Positions 44,525-55,208 of a DNA stretch of 64,000 nt are shown here, piece after piece (position 1 is the stretch's first letter; each line of letters begins with the position of its first letter). Location of the stretch: positions 1 through 64,000 of IMG/VR virus record IMGVR_UViG_3300027741_000029; one strand, given 5' to 3'. A program made the translations under genes and the position numbers. The notes beneath the pieces are model-generated. The model made no database searches, was not told where the DNA came from, and was given only the letters and a program-made list of their open reading frames with translations. Origin of the DNA: a virus.

Positions 44525-46336
44525 ATGAAACAAGACATTGCAGAAATGAGAAAATTATCAGGACTTCCTTTATACGAAGCAGCAGAGTTTAATCCTTTAC
44601 TAGAAAGTTGGACTACTGTTGGTCGTGCAATTAGTGAAGCAAAGTTAAGTCCTGAGCAAGTTGCTGCAATATTTGGTTCAGTTGAACAGGGCGCACGTGC
44701 AAGTGGAACAAATCGCACTGCAATTGGTAAAGGTGCGGATGCAGTAGGTTCTGCTGCTGGCGCTGCTGCTGGTGCTTATAGTAATATTTCTTCTGCAGTA
44801 AACAATGCATATCAGGGTATCGTTGCTAAAATTGGTCAACTTGGACCAGTTAAAAACTTTGATGATGCTTTTGATAGCATGGCAAGTAAACTTAAAAGTG
44901 CAACAGGCGGAGACGAAGGTATTGCCAAGTATGTATATGCTTATCGTGCATTTGCTAAAAACCATCCTGTATTACAAAATTTAATATATGGTGCTTTAGT
45001 TGCTGGCGTTGGTTTAGCAACTAGTGGTGTTGGTCCGCTTGTTGTTTTAGGTTTGTTTAAAGCTACTGATCGTTTGCTTCAGGGTGACAGATTGAGTGCA
45101 GCATTGATTAAAGCTGGTGTAACTGTAGGTAAGGCTGTAATCGGTCGTGAATTACAAGATTATTTATCAGGTAAAACACCACAAGTTCCATCTGCTGCTC
45201 AACAACAAGGTATGGGTGGTCGTGGTTTACCCGATGACTCAAGTCGAGCAATTCCAAATTATGATCAGCAACAAGGAATGTTAGGTCGAGGTATTCAACC
45301 ACCCAAAGGACCATCATTGCCTACAGGTGCAAATCCAGGCGATATTGCAACTGGTGGATTTGGTGCGGCTACGAATGCTGCAGGTTTAGATATTGGATCG
45401 GTTGTCCAAATAAGACCAGGTGATAACATATATAATATTTTAAAAAGAGCGTTTGATAATAATACACTTAATGTTGATCCGTCTAAGAATTGGCCAGAAG
45501 TATCTAAAATGATAGCACAGGCAAACCCACAAATAACAGATTTAAATAAAGTTTTTCCTGGTCAACGTTTGGGCATTCCAGATGTTTTGTTATATAGACC
45601 ATCACTAGGTAATCGTTTAGGCGATAGTATTGAAAGGCAAAATCAAAAAAATATCAGTGAATACATTGATAGAGAAGCAACCATTAACAGTTGGTTCTTA
45701 AGTGAAGGTGTTCTTGATGATGGTAGCCGCAGCGTTTGGGTATATGAAACCGCAGTTCCTGTTATCTTCCAACAAATTGAAGAAGCAGGTTTTTTCCAAG
45801 GTCTTAAGGACATTGGTAGTTCAATTGGTAAAGGTATTGGAAGTGCGGCTAGTGCAGTTGGTAATTATGTAGGCACAGCGGCAAGTAATATTGCTAACAA
45901 AACTACTGCTGATAAGCTAAACACGGCTTGGCAGAAATCCACATATAGTCAGGGTAGTGGCAGTGTTGATAGTAAAACCGTTGTGCAGTTTCTACGTCAA
46001 ATGGGTGTAGAAGATGCGATAATTAAGTCTACCTTTAAGAACATGAAAATACCATTTCCTCGTGGTCCACGCAAGCCAAAAACAGTAGCACCACAAGCAG
46101 CAGCACCACAAGCAGCACCACAAGCAGCAGCGGCTAAGCCAAAAGTGCGTGTGCCCGCTGGTAGTAAACCATCCACTCCATTTAAAGGGTTTGGAGGTGC
46201 ATTACAATCAGCGCCAGAAAGCGTAAGCAATCAAGATATCATGCGTATGATTAGCGAAGCTAAAAATCTAGCACAGCAAGCAGCAATCGCTATCAATATG
46301 AAGAAGCGTGGAAAAAAACCAAAAGGCAAAAAATAA
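44525..46336 (+). CDS. 603-aa protein with hydrophobic hairpin and LysM-like domain
   Basis: GALVAGVGLATSGVGPLVVLGLF; QIRPGDNIYNI...ANPQITDLNKVFPGQRLGIP. Confidence 0.75.
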   Translation: MKQDIAEMRKLSGLPLYEAAEFNPLLESWTTVGRAISEAKLSPEQVAAIFGSVEQGARASGTNRTAIGKGADAVGSAAGAAAGAYSNISSAVNNAYQGIVAKIGQLGPVKNFDDAFDSMASKLKSATGGDEGIAKYVYAYRAFAKNHPVLQNLIYGALVAGVGLATSGVGPLVVLGLFKATDRLLQGDRLSAALIKAGVTVGKAVIGRELQDYLSGKTPQVPSAAQQQGMGGRGLPDDSSRAIPNYDQQQGMLGRGIQPPKGPSLPTGANPGDIATGGFGAATNAAGLDIGSVVQIRPGDNIYNILKRAFDNNTLNVDPSKNWPEVSKMIAQANPQITDLNKVFPGQRLGIPDVLLYRPSLGNRLGDSIERQNQKNISEYIDREATINSWFLSEGVLDDGSRSVWVYETAVPVIFQQIEEAGFFQGLKDIGSSIGKGIGSAASAVGNYVGTAASNIANKTTADKLNTAWQKSTYSQGSGSVDSKTVVQFLRQMGVEDAIIKSTFKNMKIPFPRGPRKPKTVAPQAAAPQAAPQAAAAKPKVRVPAGSKPSTPFKGFGGALQSAPESVSNQDIMRMISEAKNLAQQAAIAINMKKRGKKPKGKK

Positions 46337-46863
46337 TGCGTATCGGTCAAATCACCAACGAAGCAGATAAGACTGATACCGTTAGTATGGATATCCCACT
46401 ATTACTTCGTATGATGGAATATGCTCGTGAAGATGCCAAGACTGATCTAGACTTGCATGATGTTGCTGAAAAGATGATTGAACTATCCAAGCATCATGAT
46501 TATCTGTGCATGGACAATTATAATGAAATCGTTGGCAGTGCTGGACATGATGACGTAGAAGAGTCCAATGCTTTCACTGATGCAAGAATGAATGCTATAA
46601 AGGCAGGTAAAAAATCATTCAATGTTGGTGGCAAAACATATCCCGTTACTGGTGATACAACGGATGAATTAGAAGCAGTTGAAGAAAGTTGCCCACACTG
46701 TGGTGGATTAATGTATGAAGCAAGTCTTATGAATGAGAAGAAAGATGCTTGCTATTATAAAGTAAAGAGCCGTTATAAAGTATGGCCAAGTGCTTATGCG
46801 AGTGGTGCGTTAGTTAAATGTCGCAAGGCAGGTGCTAAAAACTGGGGAAATAAATCCAAATGA
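46336..46863 (+). CDS. modular small protein (leader plus 3-4 E-delimited modules)
   Basis: MRIGQITNE; DIPLLLRMMEYARED; KKDACYYKVKSRYKVWPSAYASGALVKCRK. Confidence 0.8.
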   Translation: MRIGQITNEADKTDTVSMDIPLLLRMMEYAREDAKTDLDLHDVAEKMIELSKHHDYLCMDNYNEIVGSAGHDDVEESNAFTDARMNAIKAGKKSFNVGGKTYPVTGDTTDELEAVEESCPHCGGLMYEASLMNEKKDACYYKVKSRYKVWPSAYASGALVKCRKAGAKNWGNKSK

Positions 46864-47261
46864 GCGACATGGATTTAAGATATTTCATCAATAAAATGGA
46901 TGCTATTATACTTGGTGAAGAATCAAAAGATGAAACCAAAGATAGTGGTGAAGTTAAAGTTGGAAAGTACCAAACACGACATTTTGATATGTGTCCAAGT
47001 GCTACAAAGCTATATAAAAACATTAGTGATAAAAATGTTGATATGGGTATAGCAGAACGCACTGCTAAAATGCAAGATTTACTTTTTTATCTTGAAAAAT
47101 ATGCTAATGAACGTGGTAGTATTGAACCAGAATTTGCAACAATGGCAGAAGTCCTTGGCGAGCAAATTATGAATATGGCAAGCATGATGGATTTGTATGA
47201 TGAACATCATTATATTATGGATACGCATGTAAAAGCAATTAAGGATTTAGTAAAGTCATGA
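46860..47261 (+). CDS. hypothetical protein with E-terminated leader
   Basis: MSDMDLRYFINKMDAIILGEE. Confidence 0.75.
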   Translation: MSDMDLRYFINKMDAIILGEESKDETKDSGEVKVGKYQTRHFDMCPSATKLYKNISDKNVDMGIAERTAKMQDLLFYLEKYANERGSIEPEFATMAEVLGEQIMNMASMMDLYDEHHYIMDTHVKAIKDLVKS

Positions 47262-47740
47262 AAATGGAAGATGTTCTTGGCGAAGCATGTTGGGCAGGCT
47301 ATCACAAAGAAGGCATGAAAACAATGTTTGGAAAAAAATATCCAAACTGTGTCAAGAATAAAAAGAAACGTAGCGAAAGCACAGAACTTAAATGTGACCC
47401 GATTACAGAAAGTGTGCTGCTTGAACAAGTTGATTATTGTATGCACTGCGGAAATCTTGTATTACCAGAAGCCAAGGGTAATCTACACAAGTGGTTCAAA
47501 GACAAGTGGGTTAACATCGGTAAAAAAGTAGGTGGCAAACATCCACCGTGCGGCACAAGTGGCAGCAAGAGTGGTTATGCTAAATGTGTACCAGCAGCCA
47601 AAGCACGTAGTATGAGTGCATCAGAAAAACGTAGTGCAACAACTCGCAAACGCAAAGCACAAAATGCAGCAGGTCGTGGTGGTAAAGATACAGGTGGTAA
47701 TGGCAAGGCACCAATTCGTGTAAGCACCAAAGCCAAATAA
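47258..47740 (+). CDS. modular small basic protein
   Basis: MKMEDVLGE-ACWAGY...PNCVK; KWFKDKWV...PCG...KCVP. Confidence 0.8.
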   Translation: MKMEDVLGEACWAGYHKEGMKTMFGKKYPNCVKNKKKRSESTELKCDPITESVLLEQVDYCMHCGNLVLPEAKGNLHKWFKDKWVNIGKKVGGKHPPCGTSGSKSGYAKCVPAAKARSMSASEKRSATTRKRKAQNAAGRGGKDTGGNGKAPIRVSTKAK

Positions 47741-47762
47741 ATAATATATTAGGATTTATAAC

Positions 47763-48734
47763 ATGAGTGATATGCGTTCTTTAATTGAAAAACTTACTGC
47801 CATTAGTGAAGACCGTCCAACAATCGGTGATGGTGTATATTTGGAGTTTGGCAACATTCTACAAGTAGATACTGAGATTATGGAAATGAGTGAAGACAGT
47901 ATTACAATACTTGGTGATGAAAAATTATTTAAAGTTCTTGAAAGTTTAAATGAAATTGAAAGTCGTCCAGTTCGTAAAATTACAGAAAATGCACAGACAG
48001 TAAGAGATGCACTAATAAAAGGATTTAATACAAAACAATTCTCTGGTGATCGTTCTGCCGCAGTACATATTATGGATATTAAACCAGATGGAACTATTGT
48101 GGTAGATCGTCGAGAAAGTATTCAAGATGTACGCTACATGTTAATGAAAGGTGGTTTACCTGGTGTAAAAGTTGTTGCAGCAGTAGAAAAGTGGAATCAA
48201 CCAACACCACCTGAGCAAAAACCATCAATTGTTCAACAAGTGTTAAAAGCAATAGGTATTGGCGAAAGCGTAACAGAAGGTGAAGTAGTTTCCTTACAAG
48301 ATAATCACCAAACACTAAAACGTTTGGCAAAGATGTGGTGGCACGGTGATGAAGGCAAGCATGCACAAGCTGTAAAAATGTTGGGCAATATGGGTTGGGA
48401 TATTGCAGAAGATGATGATGATATTGTTCTTAATAAAGATGGTAAGGAAATTCGCTTCTTTATGGATGATTTATATGAATCAATCGTAGCAGAAGCAGAA
48501 TATCATGGTCGTAAAGTTCAATTGAATAAACCCCATAGAGGGGATGTTAAAAAATTTGCTGTCTTCGTTAAAGACCCTAAAACAGGCAATGTAAAAAAGG
48601 TAAACTTCGGAGACCCAAATATGAGGATTAAAAAGTCAAATCCAAAACGCCGTAAGAGTTTCCGTGCTAGACACCACTGTGAGAATCCAGGTCCACGCAC
48701 AAAGGCAAGATATTGGTCTTGCCGTAAGTGGTGA
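47763..48734 (+). CDS. modular protein ending in a basic Cys module
   Basis: MSDMRSLIEKLTAISE; IVAE-AEYHGRKV...KARYWSCRKW. Confidence 0.8.
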   Translation: MSDMRSLIEKLTAISEDRPTIGDGVYLEFGNILQVDTEIMEMSEDSITILGDEKLFKVLESLNEIESRPVRKITENAQTVRDALIKGFNTKQFSGDRSAAVHIMDIKPDGTIVVDRRESIQDVRYMLMKGGLPGVKVVAAVEKWNQPTPPEQKPSIVQQVLKAIGIGESVTEGEVVSLQDNHQTLKRLAKMWWHGDEGKHAQAVKMLGNMGWDIAEDDDDIVLNKDGKEIRFFMDDLYESIVAEAEYHGRKVQLNKPHRGDVKKFAVFVKDPKTGNVKKVNFGDPNMRIKKSNPKRRKSFRARHHCENPGPRTKARYWSCRKW

Positions 48735-48739
48735 TTTGA

Positions 48740-49372
48740 ATGTTATTAACAGAATTATTTGACCTTGATGAAGCCGCTGGTGTAGGTTTAGTTCGATTTA
48801 CTGGTAATACAATATTTGAAAGATTTGAACAGCATAAGAAAGATGCTTTGAAAATTCGTGACAATAGAAAATTTTATAATGCTATAAACAAGCATGGAGT
48901 TGATGTATGGAATATAGAATTATTAGAATCGGTTGAATCCGCAGAAATTGCCAAACAAAAAGAAATAGAATTTATAGAAAAATTTGATACCTATTATAAT
49001 GGATATAATTCTACAAAAGGTGGCGATGGCAATAATGGCATAATTATGTCAGAAGAGTCAAATGCAAAAAGAAGTAAAGCATTAAAAGGTATTGCTAAAA
49101 ATTATACAAGAATGCATGGTAAAATTCATTCAGAAGAATCTAAAAAGAAAATATCTGAATCACATAAGGGTAAGAAAAAACCTTGGGTAAAATGGGAAAA
49201 ATCTATTATAGAGAAACGGGCGATGACTCGTCGTGGCTTAACAAAGGAACAATTTGATTCCATCCATTTGTTAAAAAATGAAGGTTTAACAGCAAGAGAA
49301 ATATCAACCAACCTAAATTTATCACGGGATATGGTTAAAAAATGGTCCCTTAAAGAATGGGACTTCATGTAA
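48740..49372 (+). mobile_element. free-standing GIY-YIG/NUMOD3-type homing endonuclease gene with a borrowed N-terminus
   Basis: ERFEQH, KQKEIEFI, GYNSTKGG, MHGKIHSEESKKKISESHKG; GIY and YIG motifs absent. Confidence 0.8.
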
Positions 49373-49426
49373 TGTTATTAACTGAATTATTTGACCTTGA
49401 TGAAGCCGCTGGTGTAGGTGTAGTTC
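48740..49426 (+). repeat. 55-bp direct repeat (48740-48794 and 49372-49426, 2 mismatches)
   Basis: atgttattaac(a/t)gaattatttgaccttgatgaagccgctggtgtaggt(t/g)tagttc. Confidence 0.95.
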
Positions 49427-49581
49427 CTCCTACTAAGAAGGCTGCAAAAGACCCTCGTTATGCTAATGCGCTGACAGTTGATATTCATCCAGGCGAAACA
49501 CAAAAGCAAGCAGCAAAATTTGGCAATAAGACCGATAAAATTGGTCGCCCACCTATTATGAGTCCAAGTGGTAAGGTTTAA
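49372..49581 (+). CDS. small protein with E-terminated leader
   Basis: MLLTELFDLDE-AAGVGVVPP; TAATG coupling. Confidence 0.8.
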   Translation: MLLTELFDLDEAAGVGVVPPTKKAAKDPRYANALTVDIHPGETQKQAAKFGNKTDKIGRPPIMSPSGKV

Positions 49582-50672
49582 TGACTCAATTTACTGATAC
49601 ATTCTGTCGGCGTGCATTTACAGATTTAGTATTTGATTCTGGCATAATTAAACCTTGTTGTTATTTTTTATCAAATTTTACTAAAAAATTTCAAGATATT
49701 GAATCATCAAATCTGCAAGTTAGACAATATATCAAAGATAATAAATGGCACCCAGGCTGTGATAACTGTAAAAAAACCGAAAAAGACGGCAATAAAAAAA
49801 GTCATAGGTTGAATCACAAATATGATGATTTTGATTATGAATTATTTTATGAGAATAAATTTTCATTAAAAAATTTAGAGATTAGAGTTGACAATAATTG
49901 CAATATTGCTTGCATTACTTGTTTTAGTGATAGTAGTTCTCGTTGGTCTGCTGAATTAAAAAGAATGGGCGAACATGACCCATGTAAAAATAAAGTAAAC
50001 ACTGATATAGACAAACTTTTGACTTATGAAATTTGGAAAAATGTCGAAAAACTTACGATATATGGTGGTGAACCAATGTATAGTAAAAAAGTAGAAAAAA
50101 TACTATCATGGGCTGTAGAAAATAATTTAAGTGAAAAGATTGATGTACATTTTTTCAGCAATGGTACTATTATAAACAAAAATATTATTGATAAATTTGA
50201 AAGATTCAAATCAATTAATATTGGTTTTAGTATTGACGGAACATTTGACAGATACCATATTATAAGATGGCCAGCCAATTGGAATGAAACATTGGAAAAT
50301 TTTAATAAATTAAAATTAATGCCAAATGTTAATCTGTATATTATCTACACCTATAGTGTATTAAATGCTTACAATACCAAAGAAGATTTAGAAATTTTAA
50401 ATGAGTATTTTAATTGTCCTATTGTTCCTAATTTATTAATAAATCCATCATATTATGCCGCAAGAAATTTGCCAGAATCAATAAAGGAAAAATTAATAGA
50501 TCACTTAATTACGGTTCCTGAATTTTCATATCTCATAGCTGAATTACAACAACCAAGCAATGAGAAAGAATTAAAACAAGCTATCGAACGTGTTAAAAAA
50601 TTAGATAATTTTAGAAATACTGATAGTAGTATACTATTTGCATCAGAAGTATGGTCAATAGCCGATAAATAA
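49581..50672 (+). CDS. radical SAM protein with N-terminal SPASM/twitch-like Cys cluster
   Basis: CNIACITC, YGGEPM, SIDG; IKPCC...GCDNC. Confidence 0.85.
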   Translation: MTQFTDTFCRRAFTDLVFDSGIIKPCCYFLSNFTKKFQDIESSNLQVRQYIKDNKWHPGCDNCKKTEKDGNKKSHRLNHKYDDFDYELFYENKFSLKNLEIRVDNNCNIACITCFSDSSSRWSAELKRMGEHDPCKNKVNTDIDKLLTYEIWKNVEKLTIYGGEPMYSKKVEKILSWAVENNLSEKIDVHFFSNGTIINKNIIDKFERFKSINIGFSIDGTFDRYHIIRWPANWNETLENFNKLKLMPNVNLYIIYTYSVLNAYNTKEDLEILNEYFNCPIVPNLLINPSYYAARNLPESIKEKLIDHLITVPEFSYLIAELQQPSNEKELKQAIERVKKLDNFRNTDSSILFASEVWSIADK

Positions 50673-50676
50673 TCTT

Positions 50677-51030
50677 ATGCGTATTAAAGAAATCCTAGAA
50701 GCAGCAATGAGCACGACAATTCAAGGACGCCGCCCTATCAGTGCTGGTGCTCGTGGTCTAATGGCTGCTCGTTGGAAATATGATACCATCGTTCAGGGAA
50801 GTGATGGCAAGAACATGATAAACGCTGTTGAGCGTCTTGCAAGCACACTTGATGGCGCAGAACGCACTGACTATGATGGTATTGATAGTATGATGCAACA
50901 AATCTGCCGTGAGTTTGAAGTTGATCCAAAAGACCTTCATAATGCGTTTATTGCAAAATATAAATTGACACCCGATGCGATGGCTGCTAAAATGAAGCAT
51001 GATCGTAAAAACCGTCCAAAATCCGTCTAA
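50677..51030 (+). CDS. hypothetical protein with E-terminated leader
   Basis: MRIKEILE-AA; ATG 5 nt after TAAATA. Confidence 0.8.
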   Translation: MRIKEILEAAMSTTIQGRRPISAGARGLMAARWKYDTIVQGSDGKNMINAVERLASTLDGAERTDYDGIDSMMQQICREFEVDPKDLHNAFIAKYKLTPDAMAAKMKHDRKNRPKSV

Positions 51031-51412: not shown

Positions 51413-51441
51413 AAAAAAGAGCCACCGTGAAGTGGCTCTTT
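51411..51441 (-). terminator. intrinsic terminator between convergent genes
   Basis: aaagagccac-cgtgaa-gtggctcttt with a T8 tail on the minus strand. Confidence 0.8.
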
Positions 51442-51483
51442 CGTATTAAAAAAACTTTTTAACCCAACGCAGAGCGTTGGTTA

Positions 51484-52278: not shown

Positions 52279-52548
52279 ATGGCAACCAGAAACTTTAGTG
52301 CAGAGGAACGCACGAAACTTAAACAATTGATGAGCGAAAGTATTTCAGTAATGACTGAGGTTGAAGTACTAACAGGCGGTCTTAACGATACCATTAGTGC
52401 AATTGCAGAAGAAATGAACATCAAGCCAAATCTACTTAAGAAGGCAATCAAGATGGCACAGAAGCGTGACTTTGATAAGGCTCGTGAAGACCTTGACATC
52501 ATTGAAAGCATTCTTAACAGCACAAACAACTTGGATAGCGAACAATAA
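52279..52548 (+). CDS. dsbA: T4 DsbA/GapR-like dsDNA-binding protein
   Basis: helical 89 aa; AIAEEMNIKPNLLKKAIKMAQK; upstream of the polymerase. Confidence 0.7.
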   Translation: MATRNFSAEERTKLKQLMSESISVMTEVEVLTGGLNDTISAIAEEMNIKPNLLKKAIKMAQKRDFDKAREDLDIIESILNSTNNLDSEQ

Positions 52549-55208
52549 TGGCATATGTAGATGCACTACTTGACCGACAGAAAGAAAAAGTATTCGTTGT
52601 TGAGCGAGTAGATGGAAAACGCATCTACAGAGACTATCCTATAAATTATGTATTTTACTATGAAGACGGCAACGGGAGTTTCAAAAGTATCTATGATACT
52701 CCTGTTCGTCGTGTATCGTGTCGCAGTAGCAAGGATTTTCGCAAGGAACTTGCAATACACAGTGGTAAGAAACTATATGAGGCTGATCTTAATCAGACAT
52801 TTCGTTGTTTGGCTGAGAATTACCTTGGCAAGGACTCGCCACAGTTACAAACAGCTTTCTTCGATATTGAGACGGACTTTGATAATGTCCGTGGCTATAG
52901 CACTCCAGACGATCCATTTACTAAAATTACAGCAATCACGTTATATCTTGATTGGTTAGACCAACTTATTACGCTTACCATACCGCCAAAAACAATGAGC
53001 ATTGATGAGGCTAATCGTATTGCCGCACGATTTGATAATACTTTTATCTTTGATAGTGAACGTGAGTTACTACTAACATTTCTTGAACTTATTGATGATG
53101 CTGATGTGCTAAGTGGTTGGAACAGTGAAGGGTTTGATATTCCTTATACCGTCAACCGTGTTGCTCGTGTGCTGAGCAAGGACGACACTCGTCGCTTCTG
53201 TCTTTGGGATCAGTTTCCTAAAGAACGTGAATACGAGAAGTATGGCAAGATGAGCAAGACATTTGATTTAGTTGGACGTGTCCATTTAGATTATATGTTG
53301 TTGTATCAAAAGTACACCTATGAAGAACGCCATTCCTATAGCCTTGATGCTATTGGCGAATATGAACTAAATGAACGCAAGACCGCATATGAAGGTTCAC
53401 TTGATCAGTTGTATAACCGTGATTTTGAAACATTCATTGCATACTCTCGTCAAGACGTTGCACTTCTTAATAAACTAGATAAGAAATTGCGGTTTCTTGA
53501 CCTAGCAAACGAAATTGCGCACGATAATACTGTGTTGTTGCAGACTACAATGGGTGCTGTTGCAGTGACAGATCAGGCAATCATTAATGAAGCGCATCGT
53601 CGTGGTATGGTTGTTCCTAGCCGCCGCCCACGCAGTGAAGAGGTTAATACACAGGTTGCTGGTGCCTATGTTGCATATCCTAAAAAGGGTTTGCATGATT
53701 ATATTGGTGCTATCGATATTAACTCACTGTATCCAAGTGTCATTCGTGCACTCAACATGGGACCAGAAACTATTATTGGTCAATTACGTCCCATTATGAC
53801 TGATGCTTACCTTTCAGCCAAGATTGCCGAAGGCAAAAGCATTGCTGCTGCGTGGGAAGGTTTGTTTGCTTCGCTAGAATATACTGCTGTAATGAACCGT
53901 GATATTGGTACGGAGATTACACTAGATTGGGCAAATGGTAGCAGCGAAGTTCACAGTGCTGCTGAAATCCATGATATGATCTTTGACAACTATGCGCCAT
54001 GGGCGTTGAGTGCCAATGGAACTATCTTTAACCTAGAACATCAAGGTATTATCCCAAGTTTGCTTGAGCGTTGGTATAGTGAACGTAAAGAATTACAAGC
54101 CAAGAAGAAAGATGCCAAGGATGCAAAGGAGATTGCGTTCTGGGATAAGCGTCAGTTGGTTAAGAAAATTAACTTGAACTCGCTATATGGTGCTATTCTT
54201 AATGCAGGTTGTCGTTTCTTTGACCAACGTATTGGACAAAGCACCACGCTATGTGGTCGCACGATTGCAAAGCATATGGATGCCACTGTCAATGAACTGA
54301 TTACAGGCGAGTATGATCACGTTGGTAAGTCAATCATTTATGGTGACACTGATTCCGTATACTTCTCTGCTTGGCCAGTTATCAAGGACGATGTTGAAGC
54401 TGGTCGTATGGAATGGAACAAAGAAATTTGTATCCAACTCTATGATTCTATTGGTGAACGAGTAAACGAAACGTTTCCAAAGTTTATGTATGAAGCATTT
54501 CATACAACGCCAGAACTTGGTGCTATCATCAAGGGTGGTCGTGAATTGATTGCGTCAAAAGGATTGTTTATTACAAAGAAACGTTATGCGGTTCTTATTT
54601 TTGATCTTGAAGGCAAACGTCTTGACGTGGAAGGCAAAACGGGCAAGGTTAAGGCAATGGGGCTTGATCTTAAACGCAGCGATACCCCAAAGATTGTGCA
54701 AGATTTCTTAAGTGATATTCTAAAGAAAGTGCTAGATGGTTCGCAACGTGAACAGATTATTGAAGAAGTTCGTCAGTTCAAATACACCTTCAAAGAGTTG
54801 CCAAGTTGGGAAAAGGGAACACCAAAGCGTGTTAATAAACTTACCTATTATGGTGCACTAGAAAAGAAGCAAGGCAAGGCAAATATGCCAGGTCATGTTC
54901 GTGCGGCGATAAACTGGAACAATCTTCGCAAAATGCACAGTGATTCTCGTTCAATTGAGATCGTAGATGGCATGAAGACCATTGTATGCAAGCTGCGTGA
55001 TAATCCACTTGGATTAACTAGTATTGGTTATCCAACTGATGAGTCACGCATACCACAATGGTTTAAGGATATGCCGTTTGACCAAGACCTAATGGAAGAT
55101 ACTATCGTTACACAGAAAGTAGAAAACTTACTTGATGTGTTGGATTGGGATATCACCAATACAACTAATATTACTAATACATTTACTAGTTTGTTCGAGA
55201 TAGAATAA
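52548..55208 (+). CDS. family B DNA polymerase (T4 gp43-like)
   Basis: FDIETD, DINSLYPS, KINLNSLYG, YGDTDS. Confidence 0.97.
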   Translation: MAYVDALLDRQKEKVFVVERVDGKRIYRDYPINYVFYYEDGNGSFKSIYDTPVRRVSCRSSKDFRKELAIHSGKKLYEADLNQTFRCLAENYLGKDSPQLQTAFFDIETDFDNVRGYSTPDDPFTKITAITLYLDWLDQLITLTIPPKTMSIDEANRIAARFDNTFIFDSERELLLTFLELIDDADVLSGWNSEGFDIPYTVNRVARVLSKDDTRRFCLWDQFPKEREYEKYGKMSKTFDLVGRVHLDYMLLYQKYTYEERHSYSLDAIGEYELNERKTAYEGSLDQLYNRDFETFIAYSRQDVALLNKLDKKLRFLDLANEIAHDNTVLLQTTMGAVAVTDQAIINEAHRRGMVVPSRRPRSEEVNTQVAGAYVAYPKKGLHDYIGAIDINSLYPSVIRALNMGPETIIGQLRPIMTDAYLSAKIAEGKSIAAAWEGLFASLEYTAVMNRDIGTEITLDWANGSSEVHSAAEIHDMIFDNYAPWALSANGTIFNLEHQGIIPSLLERWYSERKELQAKKKDAKDAKEIAFWDKRQLVKKINLNSLYGAILNAGCRFFDQRIGQSTTLCGRTIAKHMDATVNELITGEYDHVGKSIIYGDTDSVYFSAWPVIKDDVEAGRMEWNKEICIQLYDSIGERVNETFPKFMYEAFHTTPELGAIIKGGRELIASKGLFITKKRYAVLIFDLEGKRLDVEGKTGKVKAMGLDLKRSDTPKIVQDFLSDILKKVLDGSQREQIIEEVRQFKYTFKELPSWEKGTPKRVNKLTYYGALEKKQGKANMPGHVRAAINWNNLRKMHSDSRSIEIVDGMKTIVCKLRDNPLGLTSIGYPTDESRIPQWFKDMPFDQDLMEDTIVTQKVENLLDVLDWDITNTTNITNTFTSLFEIE

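Follow-up and report, generated by a model that had tools for sequence, protein, structure and literature searches.

A homing endonuclease remnant carrying its neighbour's leader in a T4-superfamily jumbo phage, and its probable origin by illegitimate recombination

How does a homing endonuclease gene come to start with the same codons as the gene that follows it? The question is raised by a locus in the window, a 64,000-nucleotide stretch of an IMG/VR virus record that is a fragment of an uncultured T4-superfamily jumbo phage. The family B DNA polymerase encoded in the window (52548-55208) is 49% identical to that of Sinorhizobium phage Phosso, and identities to Phosso, Agrobacterium phage Atu_ph07 and Vibrio and Erwinia jumbo phages range from 45 to 49%. 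At the locus a direct-repeat search returned one repeat family, 48739-48794 and 49371-49426, in which 54 of the 56 nt are identical at a spacing of 632, a match that far exceeds what chance would give within 2.5 kb. The original prediction, made from the sequence alone, had described a 55-bp direct repeat with two mismatches that gives two genes a common start, and the repeat is indeed there, at 56 nt. One of its mismatches (48751, A/T) is synonymous within a Thr codon, and the other (48788, T/G) exchanges Leu and Val. The first 18 codons, MLLTELFDLDEAAGVG(L/V)V, are thus common to the ORF at 48740-49372 (210 aa), whose product begins MLLTELFDLDEAAGVGLV, and to the 69-aa gene at 49372, whose product begins MLLTELFDLDEAAGVGVV. 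An overlap between the nuclease stop and the downstream start, TAATG, had also been noted and is present, the last A of the stop codon TAA (49370-49372) serving as the A of the downstream ATG. The features on which the argument draws are as follows; L081 is a contig of the same phage from another metagenome, and L003 and L004 are loci without the endonuclease gene.

47763-48734, plus strand: upstream gene, 323 aa, with a conserved C-terminal module ...RRKSFRARHHCENPGPRTKARYWSCRKW
48493-48652, plus strand: kept part of the endonuclease-linked co-conversion tract, identical in the window and L081
48653-48794, plus strand: 142-nt patch of the empty-site allele, comprising the 'NPGP' 3' end of the module with its stop, a spacer of 5 nt and 55 nt from the start of the downstream gene
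48739-48794, plus strand: direct repeat copy 1, the borrowed leader, from the repeat search
48740-49372, plus strand: chimeric ORF, 210 aa, made of 18 leader codons, a junction codon and endonuclease residues 24-214
48795-49372, plus strand: endonuclease remnant, every base as in the intact gene of L081
about 49118-49186, plus strand: NUMOD3 in the endonuclease remnant
about 49235-49342, plus strand: C-terminal helix-turn-helix in the endonuclease remnant
49371-49426, plus strand: direct repeat copy 2, the true 5' end of the 69-aa gene, base for base as in L081
49372-49581, plus strand: 69-aa gene, corresponding to the N-terminal part of a 180-aa gene found undivided in L003 and L004
49581-50672, plus strand: radical-SAM gene between the two pieces of the 180-aa gene (Pfam Radical_SAM, 46.2 bits)
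50677-51030, plus strand: second piece of the split gene, 117 aa, with its own short leader MRIKEILE before AAMSTT

The upstream gene has more than 599 related loci, and a match to phrog_7595 covers residues 244-323 of its product; this C-terminal module is likely to be the homing target of the endonuclease family. The genes of the locus look like one tightly packed operon that ends near 51415-51480. T4 late-promoter motifs, sigma-70-like sites and terminators around the locus were no commoner than in shuffled sequence, and no second copy of the endonuclease was found in the window. Two facing terminator-like hairpins lie between converging gene blocks at 51415-51480, at the operon end.

The 210-aa protein retains the distal parts of a GIY-YIG endonuclease. 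Its NUMOD3 scores 33.9 bits against a Pfam cut-off of 20.4, helix-turn-helix families give matches below their cut-offs at the C-terminus (E 0.01-0.1), and matches to phage homing-endonuclease families begin at about family position 20. The Pfam family GIY-YIG (PF01541) gave no match to the protein at E<=1 and its gathering score was not reached. The intact 214-aa form encoded by relatives passes the Pfam GIY-YIG family at 31.1 bits, with a cut-off of 22.6, and aligns with solved structures of the I-TevI catalytic domain, its SVY aligning with GIY and its YIG with YVG, with matches to I-TevI Arg27, His31, Glu75 and Asn90. In an alignment of 15 members, the GIY and YIG tyrosines (motif A; Y6 and Y17 of I-TevI) are found in all 14 relatives and are missing from the window protein, whose R28, H32, E75 and N90 occupy invariant columns that correspond to R27, H31, E75 and N90 of I-TevI. 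The alignment with I-TevI and the 14 relatives, together with the NUMOD3 score, bears out the earlier statement that the leader has replaced the GIY and YIG strands while the Arg, the Glu, the GYN element and NUMOD3 remain.

The two GIY-YIG tyrosines are conserved and catalytically relevant active-site residues (PMC3161791); an older review regards the GIY-YIG motif as 'structural' and names Arg, Glu and Asn as the catalytic residues (PMC2988022), all three of which are kept in the chimera. An AlphaFold model of the chimera, guided by the alignment of intact relatives, has a mean pLDDT of 69 and finds its best structural matches in the I-TevI catalytic domain. It draws the leader as strands at residues 2-9 and 15-21, with low confidence (pLDDT 55-69 over residues 1-20), and because the alignment rows supply those strands they are not evidence that the truncated domain folds. 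Since both active-site tyrosines are missing, as are two of the catalytic sheet's three strands, the 210-aa protein is most likely dead as a nuclease, with the DNA-binding part kept, and the 'crippled' alternative put forward in the original prediction is the best reading. Judged on sequence alone, the chimera may keep some residual activity, since AlphaFold threads the leader, at low confidence, into the place of the missing strands. The chimera is probably translated, lying as it does behind the ribosome-binding site and ATG of its neighbour.

The origin of this arrangement can be followed by comparison with intact copies and empty sites. IMG/VR holds 24 loci with relatives of the endonuclease protein, and in the six closest (L081-L086) the protein has 214 aa and begins MVISKIYSVYKITNNVNGKSYIGFTGNT. 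Two of these, L081 and L082, come from the same phage as the window, in other metagenomes; their proteins equal the window protein exactly from FTGNT to the C-terminus, and they encode an intact GIY-YIG/NUMOD3/helix-turn-helix endonuclease without any repeat. L081:1-4202 and window 45910-50111 are colinear over 4202 nt each, and all differences between them fall inside 48653-48794; L082 differs from the window by one SNP more than L081 does. In L081 the ATG of the endonuclease overlaps the stop of the upstream gene (AAATGGTAA), and the endonuclease stop overlaps the ATG of the 69-aa gene. In the relatives L083-L086 an intact endonuclease likewise lies between the same two genes; start and stop codons overlap at either end, and nothing is duplicated. 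Relatives free of the endonuclease gene were sought, as the original prediction had suggested, and turned up in L001-L004, where the module gene directly adjoins the 69-aa or 180-aa gene.

These two kinds of locus supply both alleles from which the window can be assembled. The intact allele reads ...TATATTGGATTTACTGG, and the empty site carries the NPGP allele followed by ...GTAGTTCCTCCTACT. In the window the 142-nt patch encodes HCENPGPRTKARYWSCRKW at the 3' end of the upstream gene and matches the empty sites of L002 and L003 without gaps at 93% identity. It stands in for a stretch of the endonuclease-linked allele that is also exactly 142 nt long and that contains endonuclease codons 1-22 with both active-site tyrosines. 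At the junction 48794|48795 codon 19 of the neighbour passes into codon 23 of the endonuclease, GTTC|GATTTACTGG, with no microhomology. The intact allele, in the same register, also has the odd T of 48788. The fusion protein has been recorded on a single contig (116,399 nt), against 10 for the intact form. Anatomy, parental alleles and the singleton status of the fusion are all matters of observation. The junction itself is known from one assembly. A search of viral and metagenome contigs did not find it, and the window's own empty-site sequence also returned nothing there; its absence elsewhere is weak evidence, because the window's contig is probably not in the collections searched.

The wider family behaves as a mobile element. 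Homologues down to 50% identity (L081-L098) all sit directly after the module (...RKSFRARHxC...RYWSC..W), with varying genes downstream, and among the 80 best module-bearing loci one is occupied by the endonuclease. Between L081 and L083 identity is 97-100% over a stretch that starts about 240 nt before the endonuclease and runs to its stop, with flanks at 20-80%, and such a co-conversion signature of homing has been described for the free-standing endonucleases of T4 (PMC2988022). The co-converted segment also carries a distinct form of the module. A variant C-x-TAKD(K/R)T occurs at 15 of 19 occupied loci and at none of 79 empty ones, a count that overstates independence as the loci are related; at the module C-terminus (window 48660-48734; L001-L098), all 79 empty loci have NPGP or SPGP. 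We infer that the stretch coding for NPGP would be part of the recognition or cleavage site and that TAKD would be a resistant allele travelling with the endonuclease. NPGP is retained at four occupied loci of a more distant endonuclease subclade (L087-L089 and L096), where the specificity may differ or silent changes may confer resistance. A further difference concerns a Ser codon, TGGTCT at empty sites and TGGAGT in the endonuclease-linked allele (window 48716-48721 versus L081:2807-2812). The change from TCT to AGT puts GGAG nine bases upstream of the endonuclease ATG, and the co-converted flank thus appears to supply the ribosome-binding site of the endonuclease. About 2.3 kb downstream of the endonuclease, L083 also has an unrelated GIY-YIG-like ORF of 238 aa on the minus strand (L083:6938-7654; ...YYVYAYIRS...YYIGKG...).

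Taken together, the sequences point to a free-standing homing endonuclease of the I-TevI/Seg type, the evidence for mobility being that of the family and not of the window copy. Free-standing GIY-YIG homing endonucleases of the T4 Seg type spread by intronless homing. Like I-TevI and the T4 Seg proteins, the family has an N-terminal GIY-YIG domain, which in the intact form matches I-TevI (1mk0/1ln0) by sequence at E 1e-4 and in the AlphaFold model of the chimera matches it by fold with a TM score of 0.80-0.83 (normalised to target), as well as a NUMOD3 motif and a C-terminal helix-turn-helix. It also resembles them in being a free-standing gene wedged between two phage genes, in its sporadic distribution, in its co-conversion tract and in the linkage of a variant target-gene allele. 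Unlike theirs, its likely target is a conserved C-terminal module in jumbo-phage genes and not a gene of nucleotide metabolism or replication; a zinc finger of the I-TevI type was not seen in the family, and the window copy is without motif A.

We consider it probable that the ORF at 48740-49372 is a homing endonuclease remnant and that the repeat stems from a recent illegitimate recombination between an endonuclease-plus and an endonuclease-minus genome. The recombination mechanism, the selective logic and the loss of activity that we infer would run as follows. The window genome would first have had an endonuclease-plus ancestor, as the retained endonuclease-linked tract 48493-48652 indicates. 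In a mixed infection this ancestor would have recombined with an endonuclease-minus genome, the left crossover lying in homology upstream of 48653 and the right junction, 48794|48795, outside homology, and 142 nt holding the 'TAKD' module variant and endonuclease codons 1-22 would have been swapped for exactly 142 nt of the empty-site allele. The swap would have made the 56-nt repeat and would have placed endonuclease residue 24 in frame behind the ribosome-binding site, ATG and 18 codons of the neighbour, so that the NPGP allele was regained and the first 22 codons of the endonuclease were lost in one step. A recombinant with NPGP and an intact endonuclease would be expected to cut its own DNA, and survivors that regain NPGP should for this reason be nuclease-dead. 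Inactivation may thus be why the recombinant survives, given that a probably cleavable 'NPGP' allele now adjoins the endonuclease gene. Recombination between the two 56-nt repeats would then delete 632 nt and yield a perfect empty site; because the remnant would be removed precisely in this way, the locus looks like an intermediate in endonuclease loss. The event would be very recent, since there are zero substitutions relative to L081 outside the patch over 4.2 kb.

The donor was presumably another genome, because the module occurs just once in G001, a complete relative (the L085 record; 338,435 bp, with terminal repeats), and a paralogue in the same genome acting by ectopic conversion is unlikely on the same grounds. 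A mosaic left by mismatch repair was also considered; the T at 48788 would fit the intact allele in register but the A at 48751 would not, and the two positions are not informative. Illegitimate one-sided repair of double-strand breaks is on record for T4 intron homing (PMC2988022, citing Parker et al. 1999). The window resembles those products (Parker, Belisle and Belfort 1999) in having one homologous and one non-homologous junction between endonuclease-plus and endonuclease-minus DNA. In contrast to the experimental junctions, which lay at microhomologies after extensive degradation, the window junction has none and lies exactly in register. This 142-for-142 register is not expected of random end joining; a branch-migrated junction resolved inside heterology, or a template switch within a joint molecule, might account for it.

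Decay of homing genes belongs to the gain-decay-loss cycle of Goddard and Burt (as summarised in PMC2988022), and I-TevIII of T4 is an example of a defunct homing endonuclease. The window shares with such genes an inactivated gene that stays at the homing site as active copies circulate in relatives. It differs from them in that both parental alleles are available and the lesion amounts to one clean 142-nt substitution with nothing else changed, in that it restores the empty-site allele on one side, and in that it leaves direct repeats able to excise the remnant precisely.

Because the fusion comes from a single contig, its junction turning up nowhere else, the first alternative to weigh is an artefact of assembly or consensus, in which the contig mixes endonuclease-plus and endonuclease-minus variants of one phage present in the sample. 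Both parental allele types do occur in nature, and a patch exactly in register with the intact allele is what a column-wise consensus would give. Yet the parental sequences have no k-mer in common at GTTC|GATTTACTGG, so that a path through a de Bruijn graph cannot make the junction, and a read anchored on the left would fail to align, given its about 70 mismatches across 142 nt; the absence of the junction from other contigs, for its part, says little when the window's contig probably lies outside the collections searched. An origin of the patch within the de Bruijn graph, which the arithmetic 142 = 141+1 had brought to mind, was rejected, as no shared k-mer spans the junction. On this balance we regard an artefact as unlikely.

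A different possibility is that the fusion is useful, and here the nature of the borrowed leader matters. In the window leader, MLLTELFDLDE|A, the Ala comes after L-D-E and residue 7 is Phe, which parallels T4 MKTYQEFIAE|A (a motif match only); in T4, IPII and IPIII both open with MKTYQEFIAE and continue with Ala. For IPIII, the ten N-terminal residues are enough to direct packaging, and their fusion to foreign proteins, nucleases among them, leads to packaging of these too (PMC9026906, PMC3012670). G001 encodes a prohead protease of the gp21 type (Peptidase_S77, 90.3 bits against a cut-off of 27). The gene from which the leader was borrowed shows a suggestive architecture across relatives. 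It is undivided, at 180 aa, in L003 (L003:3690-4232) and L004 (L004:1688-2230), which have no radical-SAM gene and where the junction reads GKVNE|AAMSTT; it is split by the radical-SAM gene in the window (49372-51030) and L002, and by a solute-binding-protein-like gene in L001 (L001:3850-5398), L083 and L085 (L085:4594-6360). Wherever the gene is split, its second piece begins with a new, short leader, always ending at the same Glu, and the putative mature N-terminus is constant behind the differing leaders: MRIKEILE|AAMSTT, MRISEITE|ATMSTT and MKVKEIIE|AAMSTT, beside the undivided GKVNE|AAMSTT. In L085 the leader of the gene after the endonuclease (L085:4594-5001) is MLLNELFSQLDE|A; between it and the usual body lies an additional module, about 65 aa long, whose end VYRE|SAGVGVV corresponds to DLDE|AAGVGVV in the window. 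Modules seem to have been added between linkers that end in Glu. The pattern fits removable leaders and protease-cut modules, and the window leader resembles a capsid-targeting propeptide of the T4 type.

A known parallel is provided by the engineered capsid-targeting fusions of T4 (Hong and Black 1993; Mullaney and Black 1996; both as reviewed in PMC9026906). The likeness lies in a short N-terminal leader ending [LI]-x-E before Ala and in its joining to a foreign, nuclease-type protein; the difference is that the window fusion would be a natural accident and not a construct, and that its leader is a putative targeting signal. The fusion might on this footing have been kept because it serves the phage, the nuclease-dead remnant acting as a repressor or as a shield of the homing site against the endonucleases of co-infecting relatives, perhaps after the leader has taken it into the capsid, a route raised in the original prediction. 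The fusion is in frame with NUMOD3 and helix-turn-helix intact, the genome again has an 'NPGP' allele that is never linked to this endonuclease clade, so that protection would pay, and the leader fits the T4 pattern through which nucleases have been packaged (PMC9026906). There is also the precedent of the I-TevI DNA-binding domain, which acts on its own as a repressor (PMC2988022). However, an in-frame outcome has a chance of one in three and is automatic given a junction in register, and the remnant contains, by eye, five further [LI]-x-E motifs at which a T4-type prohead protease might cut. Nor does the fusion of leader and remnant give any indication of selection, because it is a singleton that has not diverged at all from its intact parent, without a sign of retention or adaptation. 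We hold a useful fusion to be quite improbable. Its most specific form would have the leader load the nuclease-dead, DNA-binding remnant into proheads and the remnant, delivered with the genome or made in the cell, shield the regained 'NPGP' site from the endonuclease of co-infecting relatives. This we regard as very improbable; if true, it would amount to immunity to homing conferred by a decapitated copy of the invader.

The original prediction had favoured an intron-less insertion that rebuilt the 5' end of the host gene, and of this the free-standing GIY-YIG homing endonuclease gene stands and the rebuilding does not. A repeat flanking an inserted segment does look like a target-site duplication, but an endonuclease that entered the neighbour's 5' end and rebuilt it through a 56-nt duplication is scarcely credible when intact copies at the same site, in the same phage and its relatives (L081-L086), have no duplication, when the left repeat travels with the empty-site variant of the upstream gene, and when the kept endonuclease-linked tract 48493-48652 places the intact state first. 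The comparison with L081 assigns the repeat to a later event, in which an empty-site patch was laid over the first 22 codons of the endonuclease.

An illegitimate exchange between endonuclease-plus and endonuclease-minus genomes is the reading we prefer, and in its terms the locus is most likely a snapshot of the known decay of homing genes, unusual for how cleanly its origin can be read, and not a new system. Loss is the least documented step in the life cycle of a homing endonuclease gene; at this locus one has the intact parent, the empty-site allele and also a one-step intermediate, free of any further sequence change, so that the lesion can be read exactly. The idea of a capsid cargo would be notable if true; the leader motif is all that speaks for it so far. 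The linkage of TAKD to the endonuclease points to the target site of the family and would offer a simple reason why a recombinant that regains NPGP must lose nuclease activity as well, and the precise register of the swap may hint at how T4-like jumbo phages recombine.
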